Shown here: positions 1 through 48,367 of the stretch, piece by piece
Layout of the letters: each line of letters opens with the position of its first letter
Numbering within the stretch: position 1 is the first letter of the stretch
NCBI GenBank assembly: GCA_965220085.1
Contig: CBDCOZ010000003.1
Location: 1,856,001 to 1,920,000 of the forward strand
Direction: 5' to 3'
Length of the DNA: 64,000 bases
Origin: Candidatus Oxydemutatoraceae bacterium
GTDB lineage: Bacteria; Pseudomonadota; Gammaproteobacteria; Poriferisulfidales; Oxydemutatoraceae
Program-made: the position numbers and the translations under genes
The notes under the pieces: generated by a model
Databases searched by the model: none
Seen by the model: the letters and a program-made list of their open reading frames with translations, nothing else
What the model was told of the DNA's origin: nothing

Positions 1-328
1 CCACAATACTTCTGGTTATTGCGGTGGTGCCGACGACGACGGTGTTGCCTACCCGCAGAGTGCCATTTGCAGGCGCCCGCAATCCCACCTCGGTGAGGGC
101 ATCACCTTCCATGTCAGCAAAGCGGAAGTCGGATAGCTTGAAGTAGTACGGGGATGCGGCGGTGGCGTCTGTGGACACATCAACGCTGGATGGCTGCGCA
201 GTGGGACTAGTATTTTGCGCTTGCGCCTGAGTGCAGACGGCAACCAGAGCGAGCAGGACGAGCGAGCAGAGGCTAAGCCGGGTTAGTGTTGTCCGCCAAT
301 GCGGGGAAGAACGGAGTACTTGCATCAT
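1..328 (-). CDS. Secreted Ig/cadherin-like protein of the LEGPLR family (5' part only; runs off the window)
   Basis: Manual translation from ATG at 328 (ATGA overlap with upstream stop): MMQVLRSSPHWRTTLTRLSLCSLVLLALVAVCTQAQAQNTSPTAQPSSVDVSTDATAASPYYFKLSDFRFADMEGDAL..., homologous to modules in 43882..45417 and 46448..48367; C-terminus not visible. Confidence 0.8.
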   Translation of the reverse strand, partial: MMQVLRSSPHWRTTLTRLSLCSLVLLALVAVCTQAQAQNTSPTAQPSSVDVSTDATAASPYYFKLSDFRFADMEGDALTEVGLRAPANGTLRVGNTVVVGTTAITRSIV

Positions 329-1200
329 CGCAGGGGGCCCTCAAGAAAGATGCGCAGGAGCAGGTGCGTCGGCAGATTGTCCTCTGTCACCCGATGACTG
401 TCTGTGCTGCACAGCGGCCCTGACGATGCGGGCGGGGAAAATTGATCCTTGAAAGAAACGCAGGCGCGGACGAACTTGCCCACATGGGCGGCAAGCGGGG
501 CGAAGTTCGGGGAGATAACGCCCGTTGCAGTGGCGCCCGGTATGTTGCTATAGGCGCTGCCCATGGGAGTGCCGGTGCCACTGGCGGGTGCGGCGGCCTG
601 TTGCCACTGCCAGATCAGAGTGCCGACATCAATGCTGTTGGGCTCCGTCACACCGGCGATGGAAGCGCTGATCCGGCCCGTGTCCATGGCGGTGATTGTG
701 GGCGCGCCGGTGGCGGCCATCTGCGCGGATGCTCCCACCAGATTGATGGTCATGGTGGCCATGTGGATATCGTCACCTACGATATTGGCGAATCTGAAAC
801 TGGTGAAGCCGGGGGTGGCGACAGAGATGGCATCATCCGGCAGGACATATTTGAAACGATCGTCCGACCCGGCAGCGGCTGAAAAATCACCTACGAAGTA
901 GAACTGACCCTGCGGGTGTTGATTGCCAATGCGGGTTATTGCCACACCATTCCCCTTGCGAAGGGTTCCGCGATCGGGCAAACTTTCAAAGTTCAGGCTG
1001 CTTCTTGTGAAGCCGGGGAAGTCGGCCAATACGAAGGTATGGCTGCCGCTGCCGATGACAACATCAACACTGGTGTCCCGGATTTGAGCGTCGGCACGGG
1101 TTGCGCCCAATGCCAAGCACAGGGCCAGCATGGTCAGCGAGCAGAGGCTGCGCCGAGTCATTGCTGACCGCCGATGCGGGGAGCGGAGTATGTGCATCAT
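325..1200 (-). CDS. Secreted two-module Ig-like protein with C-terminal LRIFLEGPLR motif
   Basis: 291 aa; signal peptide ending ADA-Q; cadherin/Big-like module plus WQWQ...RACVSF...GPLCS module; paralogue of adjacent genes. Confidence 0.85.
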   Translation of the reverse strand: MMHILRSPHRRSAMTRRSLCSLTMLALCLALGATRADAQIRDTSVDVVIGSGSHTFVLADFPGFTRSSLNFESLPDRGTLRKGNGVAITRIGNQHPQGQFYFVGDFSAAAGSDDRFKYVLPDDAISVATPGFTSFRFANIVGDDIHMATMTINLVGASAQMAATGAPTITAMDTGRISASIAGVTEPNSIDVGTLIWQWQQAAAPASGTGTPMGSAYSNIPGATATGVISPNFAPLAAHVGKFVRACVSFKDQFSPPASSGPLCSTDSHRVTEDNLPTHLLLRIFLEGPLR

Positions 1201-2063
1201 CGCAGGGGGCCCTCAAGAAAGAGGCGCAGGCGCAAGCGTATATCAGGCGGCGGCAACTGTGTCACCTGATGAGCGTCTGCGCTACACAGCGGCCCTTCCG
1301 ATGCGGGCATGGAAAACTGATCCTTGAAAGAAACGCAGGCGCGTACGTACCTGCTCAGTTGGGCGGCAGTCGGTGCGAAGAGGGAGGAAGAAGTGGCGCC
1401 CGGTATGTCAATGTAAGCGCTGGTTGCGGGAACACCGCTGGCGGGTGCGTCGGCTTGTTGCCACTGCCAGCTCAGGGTGCCGACATCAACGCCGTTGGGG
1501 TCCGTCACACCGGCAATGGAAGCGCTGATTCGGTGCGTGTCCGTGGCGGCGATTGTGGGTGCGCCAGTGGCGGCCGTCTGCGTGGATGCGCCCACCAGAT
1601 TGATGGTCATGATGGCCATTGTGGTAACCGCTACTTCATTCACAGACTCTCTAAAATTGAAGATGAAACTGGTATAGCCAGTGGCGATGGAAATGGCATC
1701 GGCGGGTGGCGTGTATCGGGGACCCTCGTCATCTACAAGATCACCAAAGAAGAAGACTTTGCCTTGTGGGTTAGTAGCGCCAAGCTCGTCGGTTTCTATA
1801 AGCCTGCCACGGTGGTCGGTGACGGTGCCACGGGGCAAACTTTCAAGGGACAGCGTAATTAACTCACGCAAGCCGGTGAAATCGGATGCCCGAAAGTGAT
1901 AAGTCTTGCCGATTTCAACATCAACACTGCTGTCTTGAGCCGGGGTTTGAGCGTCGGCCCGGGTTGCGCCCAATGTCAGGCACAGGACGAGCAGGGCCAG
2001 CGGGCAGAGGCTGCGCCGGGTCATTGCTGACCGCCGATGCGGAGAGCGAAGTATTTGCATCAT
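1197..2063 (-). CDS. Secreted two-module Ig-like protein with C-terminal RLRLFLEGPLR motif
   Basis: 288 aa tandem paralogue, ATGA-coupled to neighbours. Confidence 0.85.
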   Translation of the reverse strand: MMQILRSPHRRSAMTRRSLCPLALLVLCLTLGATRADAQTPAQDSSVDVEIGKTYHFRASDFTGLRELITLSLESLPRGTVTDHRGRLIETDELGATNPQGKVFFFGDLVDDEGPRYTPPADAISIATGYTSFIFNFRESVNEVAVTTMAIMTINLVGASTQTAATGAPTIAATDTHRISASIAGVTDPNGVDVGTLSWQWQQADAPASGVPATSAYIDIPGATSSSLFAPTAAQLSRYVRACVSFKDQFSMPASEGPLCSADAHQVTQLPPPDIRLRLRLFLEGPLR

Positions 2064-2929
2064 CGCAGGGGGCCCTCAAGGAAGATGCGCAGGCGCAAGC
2101 GTATATCAGGCGGCAACTGTGTCACCCGACGGCCGTCGCTACACAGCGGCCCTTCCGATGCGGGCATGGAAAACTGATCCATAAAAGAAACACAGGCGCA
2201 CACATACCTGCCCAGTTGGGCGGCAGTCGGTGCGAAGAGGGAAGAAGTGGCATCCTCTATGTCAACAATGTAGGCGCTGGGTGCGGGAACACCGCTGGCG
2301 GGTGCGGCGGCCTGTTGCCACTGCCAGCTCAGGGTGCCGACATTAACGCCGTTGGGCTCCGTCACACCGGCGATGGAAGCGCTGATTTGGTGCGTGTCTG
2401 TGGCGGCGATTCTGGGCGCGCCGCTGGCGGCCGTCTGCGTGGATGCCCCCACCAGGTTGATGGTCATGGTGGCCATGGTGACATTGGTGATTATGAGATT
2501 GGAGAATCTGAAACTGGCGAAGCCAGCGGCGACAGAGATGGCATCATCCGGCGGGATATATTCGAAGCGATCGCGCCCGAGAGTGGATGCAAAATTATCT
2601 ACGAAGAATTGCTGACCCTGCGGGTTGCTATGGCCAAGCCGGCCGACAAAACTACGGCCATCCCCCCTGAGAAGGGTTCCACGATCGGGCAAACTTTCAA
2701 AACTCAGGGCGCCGCCGTCTGTGAAGCCGGGGAAGTCGGCCAATACAAAGGTATAACTGCCGCTACCGAGGACAATATCAACACTGGTGTCCCGGATTTG
2801 AGCGTCGGCACGGGTTGCGCCCAATGCCAAGCACAGGGCGAGCAGGCAATGCACCGCCGCCCGTGCGGGTGCGAATAGCGCCACAAGCCGCAACCACAGC
2901 GAAAGCCCGGGCGAAATCGGGTAGCGCAA
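2060..2929 (-). CDS. Secreted two-module Ig-like protein with C-terminal RLRIFLEGPLR motif (true start probably ATG 3072, out of frame across a poly-C tract)
   Basis: 289 aa from TTG; frame stays open upstream to the G11-A-G6 tract at 3030..3047; MKRQMFNST leader at 3072 matches leaders of paralogues. Confidence 0.8.
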   Translation of the reverse strand: MRYPISPGLSLWLRLVALFAPARAAVHCLLALCLALGATRADAQIRDTSVDIVLGSGSYTFVLADFPGFTDGGALSFESLPDRGTLLRGDGRSFVGRLGHSNPQGQQFFVDNFASTLGRDRFEYIPPDDAISVAAGFASFRFSNLIITNVTMATMTINLVGASTQTAASGAPRIAATDTHQISASIAGVTEPNGVNVGTLSWQWQQAAAPASGVPAPSAYIVDIEDATSSLFAPTAAQLGRYVCACVSFMDQFSMPASEGPLCSDGRRVTQLPPDIRLRLRIFLEGPLR

Positions 2930-3143
2930 CTGCGCTGCGGCGTATGGCGAGTCTATATGGGATGGCGGCAGAAAGCGGGCGGCGAGGCCGTAGAGCCAAG
3001 CAACCGCAATCCCCCTATTTACATGGCGCGGGGGGGGGGGAGGGGGGTAGAGTTAAACATTTGTCGTTTCATATCCATTGTTTCTATGACAGTTTGTATC
3101 TCATGAATGCGGTTGTACGGTTAGTGTTGCACTATAAACAATC

Positions 3144-3539: not shown

Positions 3540-3580
3540 ACCACCGTAGCGGGCCTTCAAGGAAAAGCCGTAGCCGCACA
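3540..3580 (-). pseudogene. Orphan 3' remnant of a LEGPLR-family gene
   Basis: Encodes VRLRLFLEGPLR followed by TGG instead of a stop; lies between IS481-end-like sequences at about 3448..3478 and 3651..3692. Confidence 0.65.
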
Positions 3581-3919
3581 GGCAGGAAGCGTCTGCGGAA
3601 CTTGAAGGGGGTTCTTTGCGGGCCGAAGCTCCAAGCGCCCATGACACGCACCATATCCGCCCCATGTGTCCAATATGTCATGGCATCCAACACCGGCGCT
3701 AAGGAAGCTTGGCGATAATGCGCCACTACCGCCCGCGCATACCTTCAACTCTCTCTGAAATAGCAATGGCCGTGCCAGAACCGATTAGCCGATTCAACGG
3801 TAACAGTGCCCGCTCAGAACTGTGACACCTTTTAACAAATCGCACTAAGGCACCCGCATACGCACCACAGCGCTTGTTGCCCCTGCGAAACAGGGGCAAC
3901 AACTAATAAGTATGCAGGC

Positions 3920-4162: not shown

Positions 4163-4903
4163 CTAAATAACAGCCATAACTTCCTCTACTGTGTTGTGTT
4201 TCCTTGATAGGTAGCTTTCTATACGCTCAACCCCCCTGAAGAAACGCTTGTTTCCTCCCTCTATATTCTTGACAACCAGCCACAAAGAAATATCAGATTT
4301 AAACTCCTCTTTCATTTTATTAACTACTTGCCAAGAATTGATATAGCTTTCAGCGAATGTCTTTGACGATACATGTCGCCCTTCTGCCTTCTCTCTCGCA
4401 CATACAAACTCCCAAGCCTTCAATGGCTCTTGATACACAAATACTATTTTTGCTTCGCGCTTATGCTTACGCTTGGGCGACAATGATCTTTCTATATTTT
4501 TCCTTGCCCTTTCCTCATTAGAAAGGGTACTATCCATAATGAAGTTGATACTCTTCTTGAGTGCCCGGTCATGCACCGCATCTACGAGGATAGAAGTCGC
4601 GTGTTGAAACAAGTAAGAGTTAGAGCCGTCATATTCTTCAAACTCTTTGCGATACTCATCCGCATCAATAACTAAAACTTCCTCCTTTCTCTCAACTTCC
4701 TCTGCAATAATACTTTTAACTGTCTCTGTCTTTCCAGCCCCGGGAGAGCCTGCCATAAATGTAGAAATAGGGCTGGAATCTTCTTCAATTCCATCTACCT
4801 GCTTCTTGGCAAAGCTCCCCTTTATCTTTTTAGCATGCTTAATGGCACGCTCATAGATAGCCTTTTCCTCTGCTGTCATTTCTGCTGGCGCAGACAATGT
4901 CAA
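4163..4903 (-). CDS. Zeta toxin family P-loop kinase
   Basis: MAGSPGAGKT Walker A, IDADEYR, MDSTLS, EGRHV motifs. Confidence 0.85.
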   Translation of the reverse strand: MTLSAPAEMTAEEKAIYERAIKHAKKIKGSFAKKQVDGIEEDSSPISTFMAGSPGAGKTETVKSIIAEEVERKEEVLVIDADEYRKEFEEYDGSNSYLFQHATSILVDAVHDRALKKSINFIMDSTLSNEERARKNIERSLSPKRKHKREAKIVFVYQEPLKAWEFVCAREKAEGRHVSSKTFAESYINSWQVVNKMKEEFKSDISLWLVVKNIEGGNKRFFRGVERIESYLSRKHNTVEEVMAVI

Positions 4904-12724: not shown

Positions 12725-12946
12725 TTATCGCACCCGACTGACATTGCTGAGGACAAATCTGCGCACTCGCATCGGTTCGCAAGAACTAAGCCGCTCAGTC
12801 TTGTATTCGCGAAAGGCGCTCAGGGGCAACGATTTGTCAGAACTTATATCCGGTTCCTCGTCGGTCGCGGACAAGGTTCGGCGAATGGTCGGATAACAAT
12901 CGCGTATTAAGACAAAAAAGCCAGTGTCGAGAATATATTGTGTCAT
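12725..12946 (-). pseudogene. Truncated PIN-like (DUF4411-type) gene
   Basis: Begins MTQYILDTGFF, coupled to the XRE-ImmA gene; similarity lost after about 20 codons. Confidence 0.5.
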
Positions 12947-14085
12947 ATCGGATAATAGCGGTGGAACACATCTTCAAGGCCTGCTATGGATTTGGCTTTG
13001 ATGTCAAGATAATCTGCTAACTGTCGTTGGGTGATACGGTTCTGATAATATTGCTCAAAGACAAGCCCCATATACTTGTGGCCTAGGTACGCTTGCTGGG
13101 TGTTGTAATAATCTCCCCCGCTGCCTCCTCCTCGGAAAAACTTTCTCCCCCTAATGCTGCGTTTATAATTTTCGTCAGAAATAAGTTTCTTATCAAGAAA
13201 TTTTCGTAAGATAACTTCAAAACTTACATTATAGGTTTTCGCTAAATTTTCTATATCTGCATCATCGGGCAAATGTGCATAGTCTTTTAATTCATCATCC
13301 GGCACTAAAAAATTTCCTGCAAAGGAATTGCAGAACACTTCTTCGGCCTGATAGCTGCCGCTCCAATCAGTCGTATTGCGAAAATCAACGCCCGCTTTGC
13401 CGGTCAATAAGTGCCCCAACTCATGAAACAAAGTGAATATTTGACGTTGATCGGGCTGACTATTATTAACGTAGATAACCGGAAATGCTTCGTCATACAC
13501 ACAAAATCCACAATATGCATCATCATTAAAAGCCTCTTTGAATACCCATACCCCCAAGCCTTCCAGCGCGGCCCTCCATCTTTTGAAGGCGGTTGCCGCA
13601 TCCCCCCATTTGCGTTGCTCGTCTATTGAGATGCCAACCCGTTTGCGAATGCGAGCAGCCAAACTTTTAGGGGATTCGGATGCCGTTGCATGCGATGCTG
13701 TGATCGGTGTTTGAATCGGATTCCCGCTATGAAGCTCAGATAACCCTATCTGCCTTGCTTTTGCTTTTCTCACAAGATAGCGAATATGAGGAGGGGTATC
13801 TTGGGCAATGTGTTGTGGCAACGCGCGAAGATCATTTTCAATAGGCTCTTCTTCCGGCGGGGCCGGAAAAAAGAACAAAGCAATTGGCCGCTTGTATAGA
13901 TTGGCCAGTTTCTCAAGTTGGGAATAAGTTGGTTGCGACTCGCCGGACTCCCATTGGCGAATAGTATTTGGCGTTACTTTTTTCGCTGAAAATTTATCAG
14001 CAACAATGGCCTCTTCATAACCGCTGGTTTCCCTTGCCCATGCCAGCACAGACGGTGTCACAGGGCATTGATTTTGCGAGCTCAT
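12943..14085 (-). CDS. XRE-family HTH fused to ImmA/IrrE metallopeptidase
   Basis: LAWARE...WESGESQPTYSQLEKLA HTH; RQIFTLFHELGH. Confidence 0.9.
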   Translation of the reverse strand: MSSQNQCPVTPSVLAWARETSGYEEAIVADKFSAKKVTPNTIRQWESGESQPTYSQLEKLANLYKRPIALFFFPAPPEEEPIENDLRALPQHIAQDTPPHIRYLVRKAKARQIGLSELHSGNPIQTPITASHATASESPKSLAARIRKRVGISIDEQRKWGDAATAFKRWRAALEGLGVWVFKEAFNDDAYCGFCVYDEAFPVIYVNNSQPDQRQIFTLFHELGHLLTGKAGVDFRNTTDWSGSYQAEEVFCNSFAGNFLVPDDELKDYAHLPDDADIENLAKTYNVSFEVILRKFLDKKLISDENYKRSIRGRKFFRGGGSGGDYYNTQQAYLGHKYMGLVFEQYYQNRITQRQLADYLDIKAKSIAGLEDVFHRYYPI

Positions 14086-14311
14086 GTGTTGGCTTCCGAT
14101 AAGATGTCTAATATTCTACAAGAAGAAAGAGGTCTGGCAGACAAATCAGGCTTAATATTTCGTATCATCAATCTTGGAACATGAGAGCAATCAATATTCC
14201 GCTGCTTTGTTGGGCGCATCCTTTTCTTCTAAGGACTGTCTCCGCTTGCTTGGCAGTTCTGACAGGGGCAATGGCATCGTGTTGCTTTCTTATGGGAATT
14301 GCGCTCCGCTC

Positions 14312-14659
14312 TTACTCCGTTTCCTCCCGCAACACCCGCTTAAACCTCTCCGGGTCTCTAAAATAAACTTTGGCATTTTCTACAACGCGTCTTAGCAACT
14401 CCCTGTCCTCCGGGGACATCTCTTGCACTTCGAGCAACTCCTTTATCTTGTTCTCGTCAAACTCGCCGTACAACCGACCGATAGCGGCATTCAAGAATGC
14501 GGGAGTTAAAACAGAAACATTCCGGAACGATAAGACCGTCTTCTTCTCCGCGCCTATCGCCGCTTGCAGACGGTCATAAACTTTTTGCCCGTCATCAGAC
14601 GCAACACATAAGTCGCCGCCCACTGCTTCATACACGGATATTTCAAGTTCATTTTCCAT
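14312..14659 (-). CDS. STAS-like DUF4325 protein
   Basis: CVASDDGQKVY, LSFRNVSVLTPAFLNAAIGRLY. Confidence 0.8.
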   Translation of the reverse strand: MENELEISVYEAVGGDLCVASDDGQKVYDRLQAAIGAEKKTVLSFRNVSVLTPAFLNAAIGRLYGEFDENKIKELLEVQEMSPEDRELLRRVVENAKVYFRDPERFKRVLREETE

Positions 14660-14887
14660 AACGTTACCTCAGAAAATATCTTGGGGATTTGGTTTAGAAC
14701 TAAGTTTATACGATATCAATGTCTTCAAAGAGGAAGCGCTCAGTTTGTGCATGTAACTGCGCCAATGTCTGAAAACCTTGCACATCATGCCGAATACTCT
14801 GCAGAGTTATTTTCATAGCGCGACCTCTAACAGACCCATAGTGCTGTCGCTGAAATATTTGTTCTCTTATGCAAGAAGAGCAGAAAA

Positions 14888-34478: not shown

Positions 34479-36815
34479 CTATCGCAGCGGGCCTTCGAGG
34501 AAGAGGCGCAACCGCAAGCGTATGGCTGTGGCTGTGACGCTCAGACTGTAAGCTCCCGTTATCGAGCTGCTCTGGCCGGAAATGCTTATGAAATAAGTGC
34601 CCGCGCCAAGAGCGCTTTCAATCCTGAAGTTATCGCCTGTGCCGTTGCCATCATCAGATGCCAATTCTGTGCCCGCGCTGTTCTGCAGTTCTCCATATGT
34701 GTCAGTTGCGCCTGTGGTTTCAATAATGACCGTTGAGGGCGAAGCCAGCGTAAAACTGTAGTAATCAACCTCCGCCGGCGCCGAGAGGGCCCCTGATACG
34801 GGGGTTCCCACTGTGACTGCGGTTGCATCCTCCGCTGTGACGCTCAGACTGTAATTGCCTGTTGCGGAGAACCAGCCGGCAACTCTTATGTAATAAACGC
34901 CGGCGCCAAGAGCTCTTTCAATCCTGAAGTTGACGCCTGTGCCGCCATCGTCATCAGATGCCAACTCTGTGCCCGCGCTGTCCTGTAGCAATCCAAATGT
35001 GTCAGTTGCGCCTGCGGTTTCAATAGTGACCACTGAGGGCGAAGTCAGCGTAAGACTGTAGTAATCAGCATCCCCTGCCGCTGAGATGCCCCCTGATGCG
35101 GGGGTTCCCGCTGTGACTGCGATTACACTCTCCTCTGTGACGCTCAGACTGTAAGCTCCTGTTGCAGTCTGGCCGGCAACTCTTATGTAATAAGCGCCGG
35201 CGCCAAGATATCTGATGATCCTGAAGTTGTTGCCTGTGCCGTCATCACTATCAGATTCCAATTCTGTGCCCGCGCTGTCCTGCAGTTGCCCCGCTGTGTC
35301 AGTTGTGCCTGTGGTTGCAATGGTGACCACTGAGGGCGAGGCCAGCGTAAAACTGTAGTAATCAACATCCCCCACCGGTGAGATGGAATCTGATGCGGGG
35401 GTTCCCGCTGTTAATGCGGTTGCGCCATCTCTTGTGAAGTCGCTATCGGCTGTGGCCGCTACGCTCAGACTGTAATTTCCTGTTACAGAGCTGCTCTGGC
35501 CGGCAACTCTTATGAAATAAGCGCCGGCGCCAAGAGTCCATTCAATCCTGAAGTTGCTGCCTGTGCCGTCATCACTATCAAATTCCAAGAGGCCGCCCGC
35601 GCTGTCCTGCAGTTGCCCCGCCGTATCAGTTGCGCCCGTGGTTTCAATAGTGACCGCTGAAGCCGAGGCCAGCGTAAAACTGTAGAGATCAACATGCCCC
35701 GCCGGTGAGATGGCCCCTGATGCAGGGGTTCCCAATGTTACTGCGGTCGCACTCTCCCCTGTTACGCTCAGACTGTAATTTCCTGTTATATTGTTGCCCT
35801 GGCCTTGGACTCTTACGAAATAAGCGCCCGCGCCAAGAACTCTTTCAATCCTGAAGTTGTTGCCCGCACCGTCGCTATCATCAAATTCCAAGGAGTTGCC
35901 CGCACTGTCCTCCAGTCGCCCCGCCGTATCAGTTGCGCCTGTGGTTTCAATGGTGACCACTGAGGGCGAGGCCAGCGTAAACCTGTAGAAATCAACATCC
36001 GCCGGTGAGATGGCCCCTGATGCGGGGGTTCCCACTGTTACTGCGATTGCGCCATCTCTTGTGAAGTCGCTATCGGCTGTGGCTGCTACGCTCAGGCTGT
36101 AATTTCCTGTTACCGAGCTGCTCTGGCCGGAAACTCTTATGAAATAAGCGCCGGCGCCAAGAGTCCATTCAATCCTGAAGTTGCTGCCTGTGCCGTCATC
36201 ACTATCAAATTCCACGAGGCTGCCCGCGCTGTTCTGCAGTCGCCCTGCCGTATCAGTTGCGCCTGTGGTTTCAATAGTGACCGCTGAGGGCGAGGCCAGC
36301 GTGAAACTGTAGAAATCAACATCTCCCCCCGGTGAGATGGCCCCTGATACCGGGGTTCCCAATGTTACTGCGATTGCAGTGGCTCTGTCGTCATCTGTCG
36401 CTATCGCCCGTATGTCGTCGTCGACGGGCCCGGCCTGTCCGTCTTTGCCGGGCGCTTGCCGGTGCGGAGCCTCGCCGGTGTCAGCGGTATAGATGATCGT
36501 CGGGGGATTGTTGACAGAGTTGGCAGCGCCGTCAATCTCGCCGCTTGTCATGCCCCGGGCGGGGCTGAGGGTGGCGGTGCCATCGGCATAGGCTATGGCA
36601 CCCATGGCACCCATGGCACCCATGGCACCCTGGGCACCCTGGGCACTCTGGGCGGCGGCAAGCGCACTGTCCTCAATGGGGCCCACTATCGTCAAGTCGG
36701 CGCTGTCCGCCGTCGTGACGACCAGTGCGCCAGTGGCGAGGCTATTAGCCTGCGCCTGCGCACAGACAACAAACAGGCCCGGCAGAATAAGCGACCAGAG
36801 ACTGCGCCGGGTCAT
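34479..36815 (-). CDS. Secreted protein with about six PPC-like repeats and C-terminal RLRLFLEGPLR motif
   Basis: MTRRSL...AQAQA signal; repeats G.IS..GDVDFYSFTL...TTGATDT.G.L...DDDG.G.NFRI..L.AG.Y.IRV. Confidence 0.88.
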   Translation of the reverse strand: MTRRSLWSLILPGLFVVCAQAQANSLATGALVVTTADSADLTIVGPIEDSALAAAQSAQGAQGAMGAMGAMGAIAYADGTATLSPARGMTSGEIDGAANSVNNPPTIIYTADTGEAPHRQAPGKDGQAGPVDDDIRAIATDDDRATAIAVTLGTPVSGAISPGGDVDFYSFTLASPSAVTIETTGATDTAGRLQNSAGSLVEFDSDDGTGSNFRIEWTLGAGAYFIRVSGQSSSVTGNYSLSVAATADSDFTRDGAIAVTVGTPASGAISPADVDFYRFTLASPSVVTIETTGATDTAGRLEDSAGNSLEFDDSDGAGNNFRIERVLGAGAYFVRVQGQGNNITGNYSLSVTGESATAVTLGTPASGAISPAGHVDLYSFTLASASAVTIETTGATDTAGQLQDSAGGLLEFDSDDGTGSNFRIEWTLGAGAYFIRVAGQSSSVTGNYSLSVAATADSDFTRDGATALTAGTPASDSISPVGDVDYYSFTLASPSVVTIATTGTTDTAGQLQDSAGTELESDSDDGTGNNFRIIRYLGAGAYYIRVAGQTATGAYSLSVTEESVIAVTAGTPASGGISAAGDADYYSLTLTSPSVVTIETAGATDTFGLLQDSAGTELASDDDGGTGVNFRIERALGAGVYYIRVAGWFSATGNYSLSVTAEDATAVTVGTPVSGALSAPAEVDYYSFTLASPSTVIIETTGATDTYGELQNSAGTELASDDGNGTGDNFRIESALGAGTYFISISGQSSSITGAYSLSVTATAIRLRLRLFLEGPLR

Positions 36816-36833: not shown

Positions 36834-36848
36834 GGGGGGGGGGGGGGG
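36834..36848. repeat. G15 homopolymer between upstream ATG (36873) and the MTRRSL reading frame
   Basis: 58 nt between the ATGs; loss of one G would restore MKRQIYNNTPPPPSHWWATMTRRSL. Confidence 0.75.
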
Positions 36849-37479: not shown

Positions 37480-38715
37480 CTACAACGCCAGCGCATATCT
37501 CAAGTCCTCGTGCTCAAAAGCGGAAACCATCTGATTGATTTCCGCCGCGGGGGCTTGTCGGCGCTTGGCGTATGCGCGCCAGTCCCGAACCACCGCGGCG
37601 CATTCGCGTATCACGCGATTGCCATCGGACGGGCGCAGGAAATATTCCGCGACATCCTGCAACAATTGCAAAGAAGCTGTCGCATCGTCAAAATTAATTC
37701 GCGTCTTGAGAATGCGCGGCGCATTCGCAACCGGGTTCAAATCATAACAGGGGCTGAGCGTCCAACCGCGGCGCCCGAAGCGGAGAAACCCGTGATTGCG
37801 CAGATGGTCGTCCGCGTTGCTAATCAAAATGCCAAAAGCCATCCGGCGAAAGAGCTCCGCCCTGTCGCGGGCCGGCGCCGCTCCGTGATGGGCAATCACA
37901 TCGGCGATCTCAAGATAGCTGGCATCTTCGTCGCCGTCGCTGTGCTCGGTCATGGTCATAGCGCTGGCGAACGGGATGCGCCGCGCTCCGGCGCGGTCAA
38001 AACGCTTGGTCATAAAGATTGGCCCATACGGGCTTTCTACCAAATCGTGCTCGTTTGCCGTGATGCCGCAATCCTTGGCCATATCAAGGGCAATCGCCTC
38101 CCAGCGCGGGATTGAATATTGATCCGTCTCTCTGGGAAACTTTGCAATGGAAAGATGCCCGTGCCGATCGATGATCGAAGCCTTCGGGCGGGCGCCGCCA
38201 AGAGAAGAACCCGGCGCAAAAATCAAAAGGAGATCCGCATCGGCCTCCTCGCCGCGCAACACCCGTTGCGAAGCCAGCAAGAGATCGCCAAGGGCGGTTG
38301 TGGTTGGCACACCATGCGGTTGCGGCGCCTGAAATTCTTCCTCGCCTTCAAACCGAAACCGAAAAGCACCAATACGAGCCACATCAGATACACCAAGCAG
38401 GTAGTCAGTCTCTTGTAAAGTTCTGAACGGGCGACTTTCGTGGTCTGCGGTGCGACGCGCGGCGCGGCGCATGAGCTCGCGCCCCCATGTGTCGGGAGCG
38501 CTATCGCCAAAGGCTGCGAACATCTCTTTGCTGTCGGGGGTGGGGCCTTGAACCAGTGGCAAAGCAGGGTCAAACTGAAACGCATCCGGGGAAGCCAGCC
38601 AGTCGGGGTCGTGCTCGTAAGTTACACGTTCCCGGCGCGCGCCCGCATAACGTCTGAGCAAACCCACTCGGCGGCTCCGACCGCAGGCGTTTAGAAAGAC
38701 TTCGATATTACGCAC
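37480..38715 (-). CDS. hipA: HipA-family toxin (Ser/Thr kinase)
   Basis: DSAPDTWGR, GSSLGGARPKAS, NADDHLRNHGF, LSPCYDLNP; GTG start overlapping the antitoxin stop. Confidence 0.9.
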   Translation of the reverse strand: MRNIEVFLNACGRSRRVGLLRRYAGARRERVTYEHDPDWLASPDAFQFDPALPLVQGPTPDSKEMFAAFGDSAPDTWGRELMRRAARRTADHESRPFRTLQETDYLLGVSDVARIGAFRFRFEGEEEFQAPQPHGVPTTTALGDLLLASQRVLRGEEADADLLLIFAPGSSLGGARPKASIIDRHGHLSIAKFPRETDQYSIPRWEAIALDMAKDCGITANEHDLVESPYGPIFMTKRFDRAGARRIPFASAMTMTEHSDGDEDASYLEIADVIAHHGAAPARDRAELFRRMAFGILISNADDHLRNHGFLRFGRRGWTLSPCYDLNPVANAPRILKTRINFDDATASLQLLQDVAEYFLRPSDGNRVIRECAAVVRDWRAYAKRRQAPAAEINQMVSAFEHEDLRYALAL

Positions 38716-39010
38716 GCCGATGCGCCCGTTTCGGAAGTCGCTCGGCGATAAGTTGCTCGCCCAGCGGGTCTTTGATATCGCCAAACTCCCCGAGCAGGCC
38801 GAGCGCATGGAGCGCCAACAGGTAAGAGCCGATGCGCACATTCGGGTCGCCGCGCTCCATTCTATAGAGTGTGCTGCGCGTCGTTCCGGCGCGCTCGGCG
38901 ACGAGCTCCATCGGCAGGCGCCGAAGTTGGCGCGCAGTCTTTAAGCGCATGCCAAGCGTTCGCAACTTGCGCTTCACGGCGGGGGTGGTTTTCAATACTG
39001 GAGCGGGCAT
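38708..39010 (-). CDS. XRE-family HTH antitoxin (HipB-like)
   Basis: VAERAGTTRSTLYRMERGDP; directly upstream of hipA. Confidence 0.85.
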   Translation of the reverse strand: MPAPVLKTTPAVKRKLRTLGMRLKTARQLRRLPMELVAERAGTTRSTLYRMERGDPNVRIGSYLLALHALGLLGEFGDIKDPLGEQLIAERLPKRAHRRA

Positions 39011-40949: not shown

Positions 40950-41440
40950 GCCCTAGCGGGCGGTAGCGGGCGTACCGCCACCCGTGGATTCGGTCTGCAA
41001 GAACCCGATGCCTATCGGGCGGTGGCGGGCGTATCGTCGCACACGGATTCGGTCTGCAAGAACCCGATGCCTACCGGGCGATGCGGTGGCGGGTGTTGAT
41101 TTGCGGATTCTTGATGATGTGTTGCTCGCCGGTGGGCCATGTCACGACGGCTCTTTGGACATTGGTGGCATCGCCCAGTCCGAATACGAGTTCGGGCGCC
41201 TGGTCGGTGAGATAGCCTTGCCCGGCGATGAACTGTCGGGTGTTGATTTGCGGATTCTTGATGATGCGCTGCTCGCCGGTAGGCCATGTTACGACGGCTC
41301 TTTGCACCTCGGTGGCATCGCCCAGTCCGAATACGAGCTCGGGCGCCTGGTCGGTGAGATAGCCTTGCCCGGCGATGCGGTGGCGGGCGTACCGCCGCCC
41401 ATGGATTCGGTCTGCAAGAGCCCGATGCCTACCGGGCGAT
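40950..41440 (-). repeat. Two extra copies of the 3' end of the CRTAC1-like gene plus short interspersed repeats
   Basis: 41237..41377 identical to the gene end; 41071..41245 carries several substitutions; GGATTCGGTCTGCAAGA unit occurs three times. Confidence 0.8.
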
Positions 41441-41488: not shown

Positions 41489-43027
41489 CTAGCGGGCGAT
41501 GCGGTAGCGGGTGTTGATTTGCGGATTCTTGATGATGCGCTGCTCGCCGGTAGGCCATGTTACGACGGCTCTTTGCACCTCGGTGGCATCGCCCAGTCCG
41601 AATACGAGCTCGGGCGCCTGGTCGGTGAGATAGCCTTGCCCGGCGATGAGCTGTCGGGTGTAACTCCTGCCGGCGGCGGTTTCAATGAAGATGGAAGTGC
41701 CCAGATGTCTGATGTCATCGGGGAGCCGGAACGAGACGAAGTTACCGTCGCCGGTGTTGAGGTAGGCTTGTTGCGGGCCGCCCATATTGATCCAGAAATA
41801 GTCAAGCCGCGCATCGCCGTTGAGGTCGACAAACAGGGACGACTGCCCGTAGTAGGGATTATCAAGGCCGAGTTGCGGCGCGTGTCGGAAGGCGGGTTTG
41901 CCATCGCGCTCGGTTTGCAAAAACGCCCGGCCGTCCAACTTGCAGAGTTTGTGAATCGGCCACTTGATGTAGTTCTGCGCGACAAACAGGTCAAGCCGCC
42001 CGTCAAGGTTCGCATCCTCAAACACACCGCCCCAGCCAAAGCCTTCATCTTTGATGCCCCAGTCGGGCGCGACCTCGGCGAAGTTGAAATTGCCGTCGTT
42101 GCGCAACAGCGACCAGTCGTGGGTGTGGCGCTGGTCGTCTCTGATATCGCCCCGCGTCAGCCACATCGGAATCGATGTGCCGGCATTGGGAAAGAACAGG
42201 TCTTGGTCGCCGTCGTTGTCGATGTCCCCGACACCCGCGCCCATCCAGAACCCGTAGCCGGTATCAACAGGCTGCAAGGCGAAGGTGCCGTCGCGGTTGT
42301 TTTTGAAAACCTCCGCCTGCCAAGTGTTCTGCGCGATAACCAGATCATCGTAGAAATCGCCGTTCAAATCCAGCAAGACAGCGCCGAAGGAATTGGCCGA
42401 GCCCGCAACGCCCGCCGCCTCTGTCACATCGGCGAATGTCAGATTGCCGTCGTTGCGCAACAGTCGGTTGCGCTTGGCGTGGCTTGGGTCATTGAAGGTC
42501 GCGCTCTTGAAATTCGGAAAGTCCACGAAGTAGCTCACATAGAGGTCCGCATCGCCATCGCGGTCGTAGTCGCTTGGCGAAACCTGAAACGGCTCCGATG
42601 CGGGCGGCGCATCGACAGCAACCCGCGCGCTCTCAAAGCGCCCGCGCCCGTCGTTGAGATACATATATACCCCGCCGGCGCGCGCGACGACGAGATCCAC
42701 ATCGCCATCGTTGTCCATGTCAATAGACACCGCGCCGTGAGCGGCATCGTCATCCGCAAGACCGGCGGCGGCGATGACATCGGTCAGCGCACCGTTTGCA
42801 AAGCGATACAAACGGTCGGGCTGATTCAAGCCGCCGCCGATGAACACCTCATCGCGACCGTCGCCGTCAATGTCAATCGCCGCAGCACCCGTGAACGGAT
42901 GCGCCGCATCATCCCACACAACATCAAAGTCAATCTCAAGCGGCTGAAACTGCCCGCCGGTTGCGGCGCATGCCGAGGCGAGCATCGCCACGGCTATGCA
43001 TAGGTTGGTTTTGGCAAGTGCGGGCAT
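41489..43027 (-). CDS. CRTAC1-family protein (FG-GAP/VCBS repeats plus ASPIC/UnbV), probable lipoprotein
   Basis: Repeated D.D.DG..DL motifs; GQGYLTDQAPELVFGLG...VTWPTG; LASAC lipobox; start uncertain (ORF extends to 43162). Confidence 0.88.
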   Translation of the reverse strand: MPALAKTNLCIAVAMLASACAATGGQFQPLEIDFDVVWDDAAHPFTGAAAIDIDGDGRDEVFIGGGLNQPDRLYRFANGALTDVIAAAGLADDDAAHGAVSIDMDNDGDVDLVVARAGGVYMYLNDGRGRFESARVAVDAPPASEPFQVSPSDYDRDGDADLYVSYFVDFPNFKSATFNDPSHAKRNRLLRNDGNLTFADVTEAAGVAGSANSFGAVLLDLNGDFYDDLVIAQNTWQAEVFKNNRDGTFALQPVDTGYGFWMGAGVGDIDNDGDQDLFFPNAGTSIPMWLTRGDIRDDQRHTHDWSLLRNDGNFNFAEVAPDWGIKDEGFGWGGVFEDANLDGRLDLFVAQNYIKWPIHKLCKLDGRAFLQTERDGKPAFRHAPQLGLDNPYYGQSSLFVDLNGDARLDYFWINMGGPQQAYLNTGDGNFVSFRLPDDIRHLGTSIFIETAAGRSYTRQLIAGQGYLTDQAPELVFGLGDATEVQRAVVTWPTGEQRIIKNPQINTRYRIAR

Positions 43028-43192
43028 AAAACGAATCACTGATGCCTCCATGATACTGAGGATTGGCAATCTGCGCAATGCTCCCTGCATTGTCATGATA
43101 GAAAGCCACTCTTTGCGGTGACAGCTTCTTGCTCGCCTTCCGCTCGGATGCGGGCCGCACAAACCCGCGCGTATTCTCCAACACCCGCACCG

Positions 43193-43765
43193 CCCCCGCT
43201 GATGCGCCTGCGGGGATGGCGCACGATTCAGATCATCGGCTACATTGCCTCATACTCCGTTGATGCGCCTGCGGGAATGGCGCACGATTCGGATCATCGG
43301 CAACATTGACTCATGCCCCGCTGATGCGCCTGCGGGAATGGCGCACGATTCAGATCATCGGCGACATTGACTCATACCCCGCTGATGCGCCTGCGGGAAT
43401 GGTGCGCGATGCAGATCATCGCTACATTGACTCATACCCCGCTGATGCGCCTGCGGGAATGGCGCACGATTCAGATCATCGGCGGCATTGCCTCATACTC
43501 CGCCGCCGCGCCTGCGGGGATGGCGCACGATTCAGATCATCGGCGACATTGACTCATGCCCCGCCGCCGCGCCTGCGGGAATGGCGCACGATTCGGATCA
43601 TCGGCTACATTGCCTCATACTCCGTTGATGCGCCTGCGGGAATGGCGCACGATTCGGATCATCGGCAACATTGACTCATGCCCCGCTGATGCGCCTGCGG
43701 GGGTGGCGCACGATTCGGATCATCGGCAACATTGCCTCATGCCCCGCTGATGCGCCTGCGGGGGT
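43193..43765. repeat. Tandem repeat, 61-bp unit, about 9.5 copies
   Basis: GATGCGCCTGCGGGAATGGCGCACGATTC(A/G)GATCATCGGC.ACATTG(A/C)CTCAT... recurring at 43201, 43262, 43323, 43384, 43444, 43505, 43566, 43627, 43688, 43749. Confidence 0.92.
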
Positions 43766-43881: not shown

Positions 43882-45417
43882 CTACCGCAACGGCCCTTCA
43901 AGGAAGAGGCGCAGCCGCAAGCGCAGGAACCCCAGATGTATGGTCATGGTGTGGATTGCGCTATCCGCTTTGCCATCGTTTACTCTGAAGGCGAAGGTGG
44001 CAAAGTCGGAGGTGATACCGTTGCCCGCCGGAGGGTAGTAGGTGAGCCGTGATATTGAAGACCTGTCTATGATGATGCCTCTGGGGGTAACCTCCAGACT
44101 CGAAAAGCGGAGTGTGCCCTTGCCGGGTTCTACGGTGGAAACTATGGTTATTCCGGACAGGCGGTCGCCGCCGGTATCCCTGAACGGGAAGTCGGATACC
44201 CTGAAGACGTATGGCTTGGCCGCGGTTGCGGTGGTGGATACGCTCACAGAAGCATCGGCGCTGAGGGGGGTATGGTTGATGATGGCGCCGTCGGAGCAGA
44301 ACGTGCCCTCGGCGGTGCCTATGCCATCGGTGAATCTGAGGCAGACGCGGATGTATTGGCCGACATTCGCCCGTCCAGGGGTGAAGGTGACGGCGGTGGC
44401 GCCGGCGATGTCGGCGTATGCGCCGGCCGCCGGAGCGCCGGTGGCAGGGGCGGAAGCGGATTGCCATTGCCATCTGCGGCCGGCGTTGGGGATGCCGTTG
44501 GCATCGGTGACGCCGGCGACGGTGGCGGTCAGTTCCACATCCTCGTTGTGGGCGGTGCCGGTTACCGCCGTCACAGTGGGTGCGCCGCTTGCCGCCGATG
44601 GCACGGTCGTCACCAGGTCTATAGTCATGACGCGGGTTGCGCTGTCCTTGACATTGAAACCGCTCTCGCCAGTCCGCACCTTGAAATTAAAACTGGCATA
44701 GCCGGCCATGGCCGCGGTGGCATCAGTGGGAGGAGTGTAGGTCAGGAGACGCGCATCCAGCTGTGCCAGCGTAATGGCAAAGCCCGCGGCAACCGTTGTT
44801 CCGGACAGACTCAAAGCGCCTCTGGCGGGTACGGAGGAGCCAATGGTTATGCGACTCAGAGCATCGCCATCTTCATCGGCAAACGGGAAGTCGTCTGCCG
44901 AGAAAGTATAGGCGCGACCCACGGGCACATAGACGGTGTTGTCCTGCGCAACCGGGCTGTCAGCGGCATTGACGACGGCGGCGACGGAGGCGCGGCATCG
45001 GGTCTCGCGGTTGTCGGCATCATCGTTGAAGGCGGCGCAAACACGCAGAAACTTGCCCACATGCTCTTGCAAGGGCGTGAAGGTGGCGGCGGTGGCTCCG
45101 GCGATGGCATCGTAGGCGCTACCCGTCGGGGTGCTGCTGCCAGTCGGGGCATCGGCCTGTTGCCATTGCCAAGTCGGGGCGAAAGTGGTGATGCCATCGT
45201 CATCCATTATGGTGCCCTGGGCGGCGGTCAGCGCGCTGTCCTCAGTGGGGCCGACCGTGGTCAGGTCGGCGCTGTTCGCCGCCGTAATCGCCGGTGCGCC
45301 GGTGGCGGCATTGTTCTGCGCTTGGGCCTGTGCGCAGAGAGCAAGCAACGCCGACAGAACCAGTAACAAGAGACTGCGCCGCATCACCGGCGGTAGCAAG
45401 AGGCTACGCCGGGTCAT
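43882..45417 (-). CDS. Secreted four-module Ig/cadherin-like protein with C-terminal RLRLFLEGPLR motif
   Basis: Duplicated RRSLLL leader, AQAQA cleavage site, alternating WQWQ and Big/cadherin-like modules. Confidence 0.88.
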   Translation of the reverse strand: MTRRSLLLPPVMRRSLLLLVLSALLALCAQAQAQNNAATGAPAITAANSADLTTVGPTEDSALTAAQGTIMDDDGITTFAPTWQWQQADAPTGSSTPTGSAYDAIAGATAATFTPLQEHVGKFLRVCAAFNDDADNRETRCRASVAAVVNAADSPVAQDNTVYVPVGRAYTFSADDFPFADEDGDALSRITIGSSVPARGALSLSGTTVAAGFAITLAQLDARLLTYTPPTDATAAMAGYASFNFKVRTGESGFNVKDSATRVMTIDLVTTVPSAASGAPTVTAVTGTAHNEDVELTATVAGVTDANGIPNAGRRWQWQSASAPATGAPAAGAYADIAGATAVTFTPGRANVGQYIRVCLRFTDGIGTAEGTFCSDGAIINHTPLSADASVSVSTTATAAKPYVFRVSDFPFRDTGGDRLSGITIVSTVEPGKGTLRFSSLEVTPRGIIIDRSSISRLTYYPPAGNGITSDFATFAFRVNDGKADSAIHTMTIHLGFLRLRLRLFLEGPLR

Positions 45418-45650
45418 TGCCGCCTCGCCGGTTCGGGGAGGCAGCAGTACTAGAAATTTGTCGATTCATGCTATGACTCCTTATGGCCTATATCCGGTAA
45501 ATGCAGTTGTACGATGAATGCTGGCACTCTTAGTGCTGTACTCTACCACAAAGCGCAAGTCATTCGCAAATGTCTTTTTGTCAAACCTCTGCGACCCCTT
45601 CCGGCGGGCGGTTGCGTCGGCGTTGCCGGTGTGTTGCTATTGCGGTAGCA

Positions 45651-46394
45651 ACTCGTGCCGAAGCCGGCAAGCCCGAATGCTTCCGGCATGGTTCATGACA
45701 GTTCGCGCCGAAGCCGGCAAACCCGAATGTTTCCGGCATGATTCATGACAACTCGTGCCGAAGCCGACAAGCCGGAATGCTTCCGGCATGGTTCATGACA
45801 GTTCGCGCCGAAGCCGGCAAACCCGAATGTTTCCGGCATGGTTCATGACATCTCGTGCCGAAGCCGGCAAGCCGGAATGTTTCCGGCATGATTCATGACA
45901 ACTCGCGCCGAAGCCGACAAGCCGGAATGTTTCCGGCATGATTCATGACAACTCGCGCCGAAGCCGGCAAGCCGGAATGTTTCCGGCATGATTCATGATA
46001 ACCCGCGCCGAAGCCGACAAACCCGAATGTTTCCGGCATGGTTCATGACAACTCGTGCCGAAGCCGACAAGCCGGAATGTTTCCGGCATGATTCATGACA
46101 ACTCGCGCCGAAGCCGGCAAGCCGGAATGTCTCCGGCATGATTCATGATAACCCGCGCCGAAGCCGGCAAGCCCGAATGCTTCCGGCATGGTTCATGACA
46201 GTTCGCGCCGAAGCCGGCAAACCCGAATGTCTCCGGCATGATTCATGATAACCCGCGCCGAAGCCGGCAAGCCCGAATGCTTCCGGCATGGTTCATGACA
46301 GTTCGTGCCGAAGCCGACAAGCCGGAATGCTTCCGGCATGGTTCATGACAGTTCGCGCCGAAGCCGGCAAACCCGAATGTTTCCGGCATGGTTC
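45651..46394. repeat. Tandem repeat, 50-bp unit, about 15 copies, resembling the IS481 terminal sequence
   Basis: ACTCGCGCCGAAGCCGGCAAGCCGGAATG(C/T)TTCCGGCATG(G/A)TTCATGACA with strict 50-bp period and no spacers. Confidence 0.93.
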
Positions 46395-46447
46395 GCCTGT
46401 CTCACCCTTGCGCCCCATAGCGCTCCTCTTCTCCGTGAGCGCTCGCG

Positions 46448-48367
46448 CTACCGCAACGGGCCTTCAAGGAAGAGCCGCAGCCGCAGGCTTAGGAACCCCA
46501 GATGTATGGTCATGGTGCGGAAGGCGCTGCCCGCATTGCCATCGCTTACTCTAAATCTGAATGTGGCGTAGCCAGTCTGGGCGCTCTGCCCGGCCGCCGG
46601 CCAGTAGGTTATCGTGCCGATGTCGGCGGCGGGCACAATCTGGTTGACACGGGCGTCAGCGCCGCCCACCCGCAAGGTGCCGGCGGTTGGCAGGCTGCTT
46701 ATGGTCACACTGGCCAGGCTGTCGCCTTCCGCGTCCCTGTACGGGAAGTCGGATTCCTTGAAGACGTATGGCTCGGCTTCGGTCGCGGTGGTGGATACGC
46801 TCACAGCTGCATCGACACTGGTAGGGGGAGCGTTGACGAGGCGGCCGTTGGAGCAGACCGGGCCTTCGCGGACGGGGGTGCTGTGCAGGTCCATATACCA
46901 GACGCAGGCGCGGATGTATCTGCCCACCTGGGCCCGGGTGACCATGTATACCGCTATGGTTTCGCCCTCCAGGTCGGCATAGTCCTCGTCTGCCGGGCGC
47001 CCGCCGGCGGCCGGTGCGGCGGCAGACTGCCATTGCAATTCAAGGGTGTTGATGTTTATGTCGTCGGGATCACTCACCGTGCCTAAGTTAATGGCCAGGG
47101 TTTGACCCGGTGCGACAACACCATGTCCCAGATCGGGCTGACCAGTGGGGGGCATCTGCACGGCGGGCGTTATGACAGCGGGGGCGCTGCATCGCATCTC
47201 GCTGGCGGGAGCGCTGCTGTGCAGGTCCATATAGCTGGCGCAGGCGCGGATGTATCCGCCCACCTGACTTGAAATGGGGGTGTATGTGGCGGCGGTGGCA
47301 TCGGCTATGTCCGCATAGTCGCCGTCCGCCGGGGCGCCGGTAGCCGATGCGGCGGCAAACCGCCATCGCCAGCTCAGGGTGCTCTCGTTTATGCCGTTGG
47401 GTTCTATGATGCCGTCTATCGTGGCAGTCAGTTGTACTCCTCGTTGATAGGCGGTGGCCGTGCTGTCGGCGGCGGCGACGGTCGGTGCGCCGGCGGCGGC
47501 GGTCTGGGTGGCGGATATCAGGCCGATGGTGATGGTGGCATCGTTGCTGCTGAGCGAGCCGTCGGAGAGGCGGAATTTGAAGGAGGTTCTGTGCACGCCA
47601 TTGGGCAGGGTTATGTTGAAAGCGCCGCCGGCGAAGCCATCGCGGGCGGTGTTAAGGGCGAGGGAGGCGTTGACAGCCAAATCTGTGGTCGCTGAGGCGC
47701 CGGCCAGTTGCAGGGTGCTGCCATCGGCGGGCAACTCGGCGATGATGACAGCGCCCAGCATGTCGCCGGCGCCGTCGGGATCGCTGAATGCCGTCACAAA
47801 TGGCGTCACCGGGATGGCGGCGGTGTTGCTGCCTGCGGTGCGGGCGATGTGATGGGTCACATCTTTGGCGCTGGGGGCATCATTGACATTGGCCACGGCG
47901 GTGGCTATCCGGTGGCAACGTTTTTCGTTGAAGCCGCGATCGTCATTGAAAGCTGCGCAGACTTCCAGGAACTTGCCCACATGGATCTGCAACGGGGCAA
48001 AGGTGGCAGTCGCGACATTCAGGGAATCGGCGGGGCGGTATGCGGCATAGGCGCCGCCGTGGGTGTCGGCCACTCTCCATTCCCAGAGGGTGGGGATGAA
48101 AGTGGTTAAACCATGGCTATCCTCGATGCTACCGCGGGATGCGGTGATGGGGCTGCCCTGGGTGGGGACGGTTATGCCGCTGGCGTAGGCGACGGCCGGC
48201 TCGCCAGTGGCTTGTTGCGCCTGCGCCTGACCGCAGACAACAAACAGCGCCGGCAACATCAGCGAGCAGAGACTGCGCCGCATCACCAGCGGTAACAAGA
48301 GGCTACGCCGGGACATCGTTGCTCGCCAGTGCGGGGGGGTAGCAGTATTAAAAACTTGTCGATTCAT
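46448..48367 (-). CDS. Secreted multi-module Ig/cadherin-like protein with C-terminal RLRLFLEGPLR motif
   Basis: AAGGAG RBS before MNRQVFNTATPPHWRATMSRRSLL; five modules homologous to paralogues. Confidence 0.88.
   Translation of the reverse strand: MNRQVFNTATPPHWRATMSRRSLLLPLVMRRSLCSLMLPALFVVCGQAQAQQATGEPAVAYASGITVPTQGSPITASRGSIEDSHGLTTFIPTLWEWRVADTHGGAYAAYRPADSLNVATATFAPLQIHVGKFLEVCAAFNDDRGFNEKRCHRIATAVANVNDAPSAKDVTHHIARTAGSNTAAIPVTPFVTAFSDPDGAGDMLGAVIIAELPADGSTLQLAGASATTDLAVNASLALNTARDGFAGGAFNITLPNGVHRTSFKFRLSDGSLSSNDATITIGLISATQTAAAGAPTVAAADSTATAYQRGVQLTATIDGIIEPNGINESTLSWRWRFAAASATGAPADGDYADIADATAATYTPISSQVGGYIRACASYMDLHSSAPASEMRCSAPAVITPAVQMPPTGQPDLGHGVVAPGQTLAINLGTVSDPDDININTLELQWQSAAAPAAGGRPADEDYADLEGETIAVYMVTRAQVGRYIRACVWYMDLHSTPVREGPVCSNGRLVNAPPTSVDAAVSVSTTATEAEPYVFKESDFPYRDAEGDSLASVTISSLPTAGTLRVGGADARVNQIVPAADIGTITYWPAAGQSAQTGYATFRFRVSDGNAGSAFRTMTIHLGFLSLRLRLFLEGPLR

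Follow-up and report, generated by a model that had tools for sequence, protein, structure and literature searches.

A short C-terminal strand tag on secreted proteins of a gammaproteobacterium, and its likely pairing with a split X-module-dockerin adaptor

The window analyzed here is a 64,000-nt stretch of the genome of a Candidatus Oxydemutatoraceae bacterium (termed G000; 2.49 Mb, 99% complete), and it carries a set of genes for adhesin-like proteins that end, directly before the stop codon, in a short peptide of the form LR(L/I)FLEGPLR. Coordinates are those of the window unless prefixed. An original prediction, made from the letters of this DNA, had put the peptide forward as a new C-terminal sorting tag, and translation of the window places the six frames and the one remnant as described there, all on the minus strand (Table 1). 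The count of six genes holds for the tags that lie in the window, but a seventh tagged gene also begins there, with its tag outside. Their description as full genes needs qualifying: the genes at 34479, 43882, and 2060 have the MKRQ/MNRQ leader ATG of the family in a different frame from the body, and it is 46448..48367 alone that reads through from its leader. A downstream in-frame ATG precedes the hydrophobic stretch in the genes at 34479 and 43882, and in the gene at 2060 there is only a TTG; the gene at 43882 has no poly-C tract in its leader. The gene bodies do differ as claimed, with six PPC stretches in 34479..36815 and immunoglobulin (Ig)/cadherin-like matches in the genes at 43882 and 46448, while the Pfam scan gave no match for the three short frames (325, 1197, and 2060).

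A scan of the whole proteome, suggested along with the prediction, extends the tag far past the window: 214 stop-to-stop frames of G000 (of at least 20 residues) end in the motif, which reads LRLFLEGPLR in 148, LRIFLEGPLR in 36, LRVFLEGPLR in 26, and otherwise in 4. A strict DNA pattern gave 214 matches in G000 and 0 for the reversed control, and the occurrence of the tag is far above chance. Frames of at least 150 residues number 187 (the longest has 15,193 residues) and make up 19.6% of G000; the other 27 are short orphan tails. It is the peptide and not the DNA that is conserved, as had been proposed: in the last 12 codons before the stop, departures of the G000 tags from the commonest codon are synonymous in 838 cases and non-synonymous in 79, of which 62 are L/I/V swaps at one position. 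A few bases beyond the stop, DNA identity among tagged genes has already dropped below ∼70%. Signal-peptide-like starts, called by a hydrophobicity rule of our own and not by SignalP, occur in 153/187 long tagged frames as compared with 200/1,090 other long frames; under a looser rule the count rises to 172/187, and the other 15 all have homology to paralogues that bear a signal. No cytoplasmic carrier was seen when the signal rule was applied to the 187 and Pfam to 27 proteins or protein ends (21 chosen, plus the six of the window).

The tag is also not the last strand of the cargo fold, since it follows PPC, He_PIG, cadherin, Calx-beta-type, and Cys-rich modules as well as Pro-rich linkers, and in three G000 proteins it stands directly after the signal peptide and is followed by GGS, a placement that is allowed if the tag is position-free. 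Two of these three are PPC-repeat proteins like that encoded at 34479..36815, without a C-terminal tag, and a further PPC protein in G000 ends in a GlyGly-type tail instead of the tag. Two haloperoxidase-like genes (HPSYGAGHATVAGA motif, by eye; L195:6012-7916 and 13973-15820, within G000:C3:1166012-1175820) flank this GlyGly-tailed protein and one of the PPC proteins with an N-terminal tag. Clustering of the 100 residues before the tag chained 143/187 cargo proteins into one group (9 groups in total), and cargo diversity was therefore judged by Pfam on the 21 chosen proteins or ends. Giant tagged cadherin/fn3 proteins are clustered at G000:C3:1323205-1488230 (6,024–15,193 residues) and 1770458-1838191 (4,009–14,215 residues).

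The tag appears to fit none of the sorting signals with which it had been compared. It has just two residues beyond GP and lacks a hydrophobic helix, which sets it apart from the tripartite LPXTG, PEP-CTERM, and GlyGly-CTERM signals, and the corresponding NCBIfam models had no match on the 4 window proteins scanned. It ends in R, and three tags are N-terminal, neither of which suits a β-signal of the β-barrel assembly machinery or an autotransporter; PF03797 had no match in G000, and as a control was found in 3/14 genomes. The C-terminal domain of type IX secretion substrates spans 70–80 residues, against 14 for the tag, and the TIGR04183 score on the PPC protein lies mid-protein, with no passing stretch.

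A similar strand opens a Bacteroidota domain, and G000 was searched for the inner motifs of that domain. One frame matched (G000:C3:469175-470137), encoding 320 residues in which a signal peptide is followed by QRSMNTGL, i.e., a headless form of the domain, hereafter the adaptor. A profile search found one headless copy in G000, against the 214 tags. The intact domain is widespread, unnamed, and X-module-dockerin-like, and opens with a strand of the form xLxLKVFLEGPF/Y. On the intact natural protein P0129, the tag profile aligns to residues 1–17 (hhalign probability 88, E 3.1e-6) and the headless-family profile to residues 20–223 (probability 99.9); together the two cover a single intact domain and do not overlap. 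Scored with a matrix from 87 intact-domain strands, the 214 tags have a median of 10.6 bits (lowest, −0.8), whereas 8,275 other C-termini reach a maximum of 7.0 bits and a 99.9th percentile of −9.8 bits. The candidate partner lies outside the window, as had been expected. Neither a partner in the outer membrane nor an export signal acting on its own is supported; the candidate is a soluble secreted protein, the remainder of the tag's own domain.

A profile built from 17 homologues retrieves 15,370 representatives at E ≤ 1e-3. Among the best 150 of these, a script found the strand in 90, a headless form with a signal peptide in 36, a truncated form in 8, and another arrangement in 16; on review by eye, the 36 include ∼4 that are intact or unclear, and ∼5 of the 16 lack the head. 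Among genome records, the intact form is mostly C-terminal in proteins from Bacteroidota, Ignavibacteria, Calditrichia, and Thiolinea, and one copy reads LRLRVFLQGPY. Most intact domains in Bacteroidota and allies (L053-L127) end the protein ∼105–110 residues past HRNH with no further domain, which raises the question of the export route of these proteins. Dockerin_1 (Pfam) is matched by 6/68 aligned homologues, and no Pfam or NCBIfam model covers the intact domain. The possibility that the tag is an already described domain is borne out in that it matches part of an existing domain, but not in that any such model describes it, and the match explains the origin of the tag and does not dismiss it.

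The AlphaFold2 model of P0129 (pLDDT 96.9) places the motif at strand 5–10; the tag is probably a β-strand, in agreement with the earlier view of a portable, protein-level tag on exported proteins. The closest matches to this model are cellulosome X-dockerins (4u3s_B, E 1.3e-4; 3kcp_A, Z 11.0, rmsd 3.6 over 150 aligned residues; 5g5d_B, Z 10.1; next, 4.9), and the predicted fold is that of a β-sandwich X module followed by a two-helix dockerin (XDoc). Weaker matches are to transthyretin-like, CnaB, and type V pilin domains (Z 3–4.4). The family profile matches dockerins weakly (2vn5_B, E 0.0019), with the GD..D and D.N.D columns conserved.

In G000, the adaptor gene stands in the order type II secretion system (T2SS) cluster, two rhodanese-like genes, adaptor, cohesin-fold protein, rhombosortase. 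GspD, GspE, and GspG score above the NCBIfam cut-offs (428/351, 642/630, and 125/89 bits, score/cut-off), as does the rhombosortase (TIGR03902, 96/84 bits), while T2SS genes F and H–N were recognized by eye; G000 thus has both the rhombosortase and the T2SS of a GlyGly-CTERM system. The gene downstream of the adaptor encodes ∼1,350 residues and is the candidate anchor. Its first domain is predicted to take the nine-strand jelly-roll fold of a cohesin (pLDDT 74.5): the top 20 VIA matches are all cohesins (Z 12.5–8.4; best rmsd 2.9 over 141 residues), and the best Foldseek match has E 1.4e-5. Sequence searches of this domain against the PDB gave nothing meaningful, with no sequence-level cohesin match, and the Atlas returned phage hypotheticals at 0.90 and a 13% Cohesin cluster at 0.86, the latter as a lead only. 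The anchor ends in a choice_anch_U-like stretch (30.3 vs. a cut-off of 32) followed by GGGGGGGG, a hydrophobic segment, and RRQRR; apart from that sub-cut-off match, Pfam and NCBIfam name neither adaptor nor anchor. By our own pattern, GlyGly-type tails occur in two G000 proteins, the anchor and one PPC protein. An O-antigen-ligase-like membrane protein with TPR repeats (below cut-off) is encoded directly before the T2SS cluster (L003:3805-6069; G000:C3:449805-452069), and exported cargo could possibly be glycosylated.

The domain is present in 17/19 genomes of the family and in 0/34 genomes of the order's other families. Short headless forms occur in 16 of the 17, and all 16 carry tags; under a relaxed pattern, thirteen headless-bearing genomes have 6–221 tags each, as compared with at most 2 in controls and at most 2 in the 34 outside genomes. 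The exception, G001, has 25 domain copies that retain the strand, in frames of 687–17,496 residues, and each of the 15 strand matches examined (of 16 in total) directly precedes a domain match. In a class-wide sample of 400 genomes, matches came from one further genus, where 6/6 copies read keep their strand, and all headless forms that could be placed in a genome belong to this one family. Genome records with headless genes carry the label "Candidatus Porisulfidus sp."; Porisulfidus is associated with sponges. Candidatus Porisulfidus serves as an outgroup to SUP05 in PMC9123188.

Across the family, the tags fall into lineage-specific dialects. G006 and G010 have RLRVFLEGAV with a short tail, the one tag seen in G005 is RVFLQGALQ*, and tags of genus g2 carry up to ∼12 extra residues after the motif, a longer-tail dialect that the strict and relaxed patterns miss and that was found by a separate search. 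In genus g5, free tags read LLGGAVR*/FLGGMVR*, with GG replacing EG, and a natural fused cohesin-Ig-strand-XDoc protein of that genus reads VEINVLLGGAVR before the domain, with GG as in its free tags. Tagged genes end directly before the headless gene in G002, G015, and G017, and in G002 and G017 the order is a tagged cohesin-long protein (3,400 residues), the adaptor, and a second tagged cohesin-long protein. A cohesin-like gene follows the adaptor(s) at 13/13 loci read, with GlyGly-type tails at 9/9 ends read, and in a distant gammaproteobacterial genus the intact domain is likewise followed by a cohesin-like gene (by eye). A 2,741-residue anchor in G013 (G013:C1:1773042-1779539) has four cohesin-like matches and is scaffoldin-like, and a 19,552-residue frame in G005 (G005:C1:928319) opens with a cohesin-like domain.

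We consider it likely that tag and adaptor are the two parts of a split X-module-dockerin, in which the tag, as the first strand, would bind the headless remainder, and the dockerin half would dock to the predicted cohesin of an anchor that is itself probably held at the surface by way of rhombosortase and the T2SS. Sec would carry cargo, adaptor, and anchor alike into the periplasm. Before or after export, the tag would supply the missing strand of the adaptor X-module by strand complementation, and the adaptor's dockerin half would bind the cohesin of the anchor. Processing of the anchor would fall to rhombosortase and its outward transport to the T2SS, by analogy with the Vibrio GlyGly-CTERM proteins as reported in PMC13393428. 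Because many tags would complete one adaptor, the cell likely plugs interchangeable surface proteins into a single membrane anchor, and poly-C tracts may switch which cargo is shown. Such tracts (at least 7 C near the gene start) occur in 82/187 cargo genes vs. 10/1,090 controls in G000. Of the 81 cargo genes with at least 9 C, the nearest leader ATG is continuous with the body in 12 and not in 47; for the other 22 our rule gave no ATG. The pattern fits phase variation, but long homopolymers are error-prone in assemblies. A more elaborate version, which we hold tentatively and put at a little under an even chance, is a natural tag/catcher system: the headless X-dockerin would both license type II export and clip tagged proteins to the cohesin anchor, forming a phase-variable coat of ∼190 proteins, and in relatives (G002 and G017) the tagged cohesin proteins would chain head-to-tail via the adaptor into extendable fibers.

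Several observations weigh against the split-domain arrangement. The XDoc fold is carried over to the G000 adaptor from P0129 by profile alignment and not from a model of its own, and the adaptor's dockerin half is divergent, with no Dockerin_1 match and an insertion in the first calcium loop. The GlyGly-type tail of the anchor (Gly-run, hydrophobic, basic) is plain by eye and has no TIGR03501 match, and by our own profile G000 has one cohesin-like domain for its 187 cargo genes. We know of no precedent for a 15,000-residue cargo passing through a T2SS. Among relatives, G008, with neither tag nor adaptor, keeps a cohesin-like protein; G014 is tagged with no adaptor found in its assembly (85% complete, 230 contigs); and our profile did not detect the cohesin-like domain in G001 or G004. 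As the family genomes are kin, the co-occurrence of tag and adaptor reflects a few events and not 16, and is a pattern rather than a statistical test.

It is unlikely, in our view, that the pairing of tag and adaptor serves mainly for export, with the completed X-module as the folded signal recognized by the T2SS and the cargo afterwards released or loosely held. One adaptor would indeed spare 187 unrelated cargoes a T2SS signal of their own, G000 has the single cohesin-like domain, and searches of it found neither an autotransporter domain nor a type I HlyD that scored above cut-off. According to PMC13393428, GlyGly-CTERM confers membrane association, whereas passage across the outer membrane requires a second signal. 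However, the adaptor retains a dockerin-like half and precedes a cohesin-fold anchor at all 13 loci, which points to retention of the cargo; the two roles can coexist. Still less probable is that an outer-membrane transporter or a protease reads the peptide as a signal in its own right, the headless protein being a by-product of domain decay. The extreme C-terminal position is near-invariant in the 214 cases, and ShlB- and SprA-type searches were blank in G000 with controls blank too, yet tag and headless protein tile exactly, the latter is kept as a conserved, intact, signal-peptide-bearing gene in 16 genomes, and the N-terminal tags and the extra residues of the g2 tags argue against a reader that needs a free C-terminus. 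The conserved stretch might instead be a DNA site at which recombination or gene conversion shuffles the ends of cargo genes, with the peptide incidental. This would account for the 27 orphan tails, the tandem paralogue arrays, and the DNA similarity that in some cases extends a few bases past the stop, but it is very improbable and largely refuted by the synonymous excess with free third positions, by conservation of the peptide across genera with differing DNA, and by the match of the tag to a protein strand in distant phyla.

In the cellulosome, a dockerin-bearing module attaches proteins to a cell-anchored cohesin, and the type II cohesin/XDoc pair of Clostridium thermocellum (PDB 3kcp, 5g5d, and 4u3s) has the folds predicted here for both partners. 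The split-domain arrangement would differ from it in that the X-module is divided, with the first strand on the cargo and the rest on one shared adaptor, and in that the host is a diderm gammaproteobacterium, the cargo is adhesin-like and not cellulolytic, and the anchor is GlyGly-type rather than SLH- or sortase-dependent. The intact KVFLEGP domain of Bacteroidota, Ignavibacteria, Calditrichia, Thiolinea, and G001 is the same domain by profile, with the same strand sequence, but is whole and repeated on every cargo. In donor-strand complementation (chaperone-usher and type V pili) and in SpyTag/SpyCatcher, a strand of one chain completes the incomplete β-sandwich of another, and the tiling together with the intact-domain model suggests a similar pairing in G000. 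In contrast to pili, many unrelated cargoes would join one adaptor, not pilin to pilin, with no usher identified; in contrast to SpyTag/SpyCatcher, the pair would be natural and not engineered, with no isopeptide chemistry identified. GlyGly-CTERM/rhombosortase/T2SS display, exemplified by Vibrio cholerae VesB (PMC13393428), shares the rhombosortase, the T2SS, and the tails of the anchor and one PPC protein, whereas ∼190 G000 proteins carry a soluble tag without a membrane helix and two carry a GlyGly tail.

The proposed sorting principle would be built from known parts (cohesin-dockerin, GlyGly-CTERM, T2SS, and strand complementation); on a stricter view it could be counted as one more form of cohesin-dockerin display. 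No description of such a tag/adaptor system was found in the literature searched, which lay outside subscription journals and supplements. If binding is confirmed, a short soluble tag would be read by completion of a split domain, not by a sortase or a barrel. About a fifth of the genome would then be devoted to interchangeable surface proteins with one adaptor, a domain with more than 15,000 unannotated representatives would gain a named function, and the T2SS substrate signal would become testable with a 14-mer. Such a system would also suggest how uncultured symbiont-type bacteria vary their surface, and the dialects FLEGPLR, FLEGALE, and FLGGMVR may offer natural, possibly orthogonal tag/catcher pairs for protein engineering.

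Table 1. Tagged genes, tags, and poly-C tracts of the window.
Feature	Position	Strand	Basis or remark
5' part of seventh tagged gene	2..328	-	tag beyond window at G000:C3:1854301
Tagged cargo gene; product of 291 aa with two Ig-like modules behind a signal-peptide-like start	325..1200	-	modules by eye; no Pfam match
Tag variant ...LLLRIFLEGPLR	328..369	-	stop = 325-327
Tagged cargo gene, 288 aa, paralogue of 325..1200	1197..2063	-	translation
Tag ...RLRLRLFLEGPLR	1200..1241	-	translation
Tagged cargo frame of 289 aa; leader ATG of the family (3072) lies in another frame, which ends early	2060..2929	-	translation
Tag ...RLRLRIFLEGPLR	2063..2104	-	translation
C11 tract in leader of 2060 gene	3030..3040	-	sequence
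Orphan tag remnant PVRLRLFLEGPLRW, without stop; TGG at usual stop position	3544..3585	-	sequence
Tagged cargo gene, 778 aa, PPC repeats	34479..36815	-	PF04151, 6 stretches, E 2.7e-43
Tag ...RLRLRLFLEGPLR	34482..34523	-	translation
C15 tract between MKRQ leader ATG (36873) and body; leader out of frame in assembly; candidate phase-variation switch	36834..36848	-	
Tagged cargo gene, 511 aa; sub-cut-off matches to ZirU-like and cadherin-like modules; MNRQ leader upstream, not in frame	43882..45417	-	
Tag ...RLRLRLFLEGPLR	43885..43926	-	translation
Tagged cargo gene, 639 aa, last module Big_9/Cadherin_5; leader in frame through C7 (48333-48339)	46448..48367	-	
Tag ...SLRLRLFLEGPLR	46451..46492	-	translation

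Non-coding tandem repeats lie beside or between the tagged genes of the window at 45649-46394 (50 bp × 14.9), 43194-43762 (61 bp × 9.3), and 40952-41080 (59 bp × 2.2), and an untagged FG-GAP/ASPIC-UnbV protein (41489-43162) adjoins them. A defence-island-like region (12943-32500) encodes two IrrE/M78 proteins, DUF4145, SIR2-DUF4020 (1,196 residues), a DprA-like protein, an Eco57I-type methylase, an SNF2 helicase, and an FRG-TPR protein. A type V-A-like CRISPR locus (51098-60955) has an array of ∼63 units with a period of ∼62, together with Cas1, Cas4, and a 1,297-residue Cas12a/Cpf1 matching REC1, REC2, PI, NUC, and RuvC. Finally, the loci at 4163-4903, 37480-38841, and 48896-50221 encode a Zeta-toxin-like ATPase, a HipA-like kinase, and a Fic-like protein with the HPFVDGNGR motif (Fic by eye).

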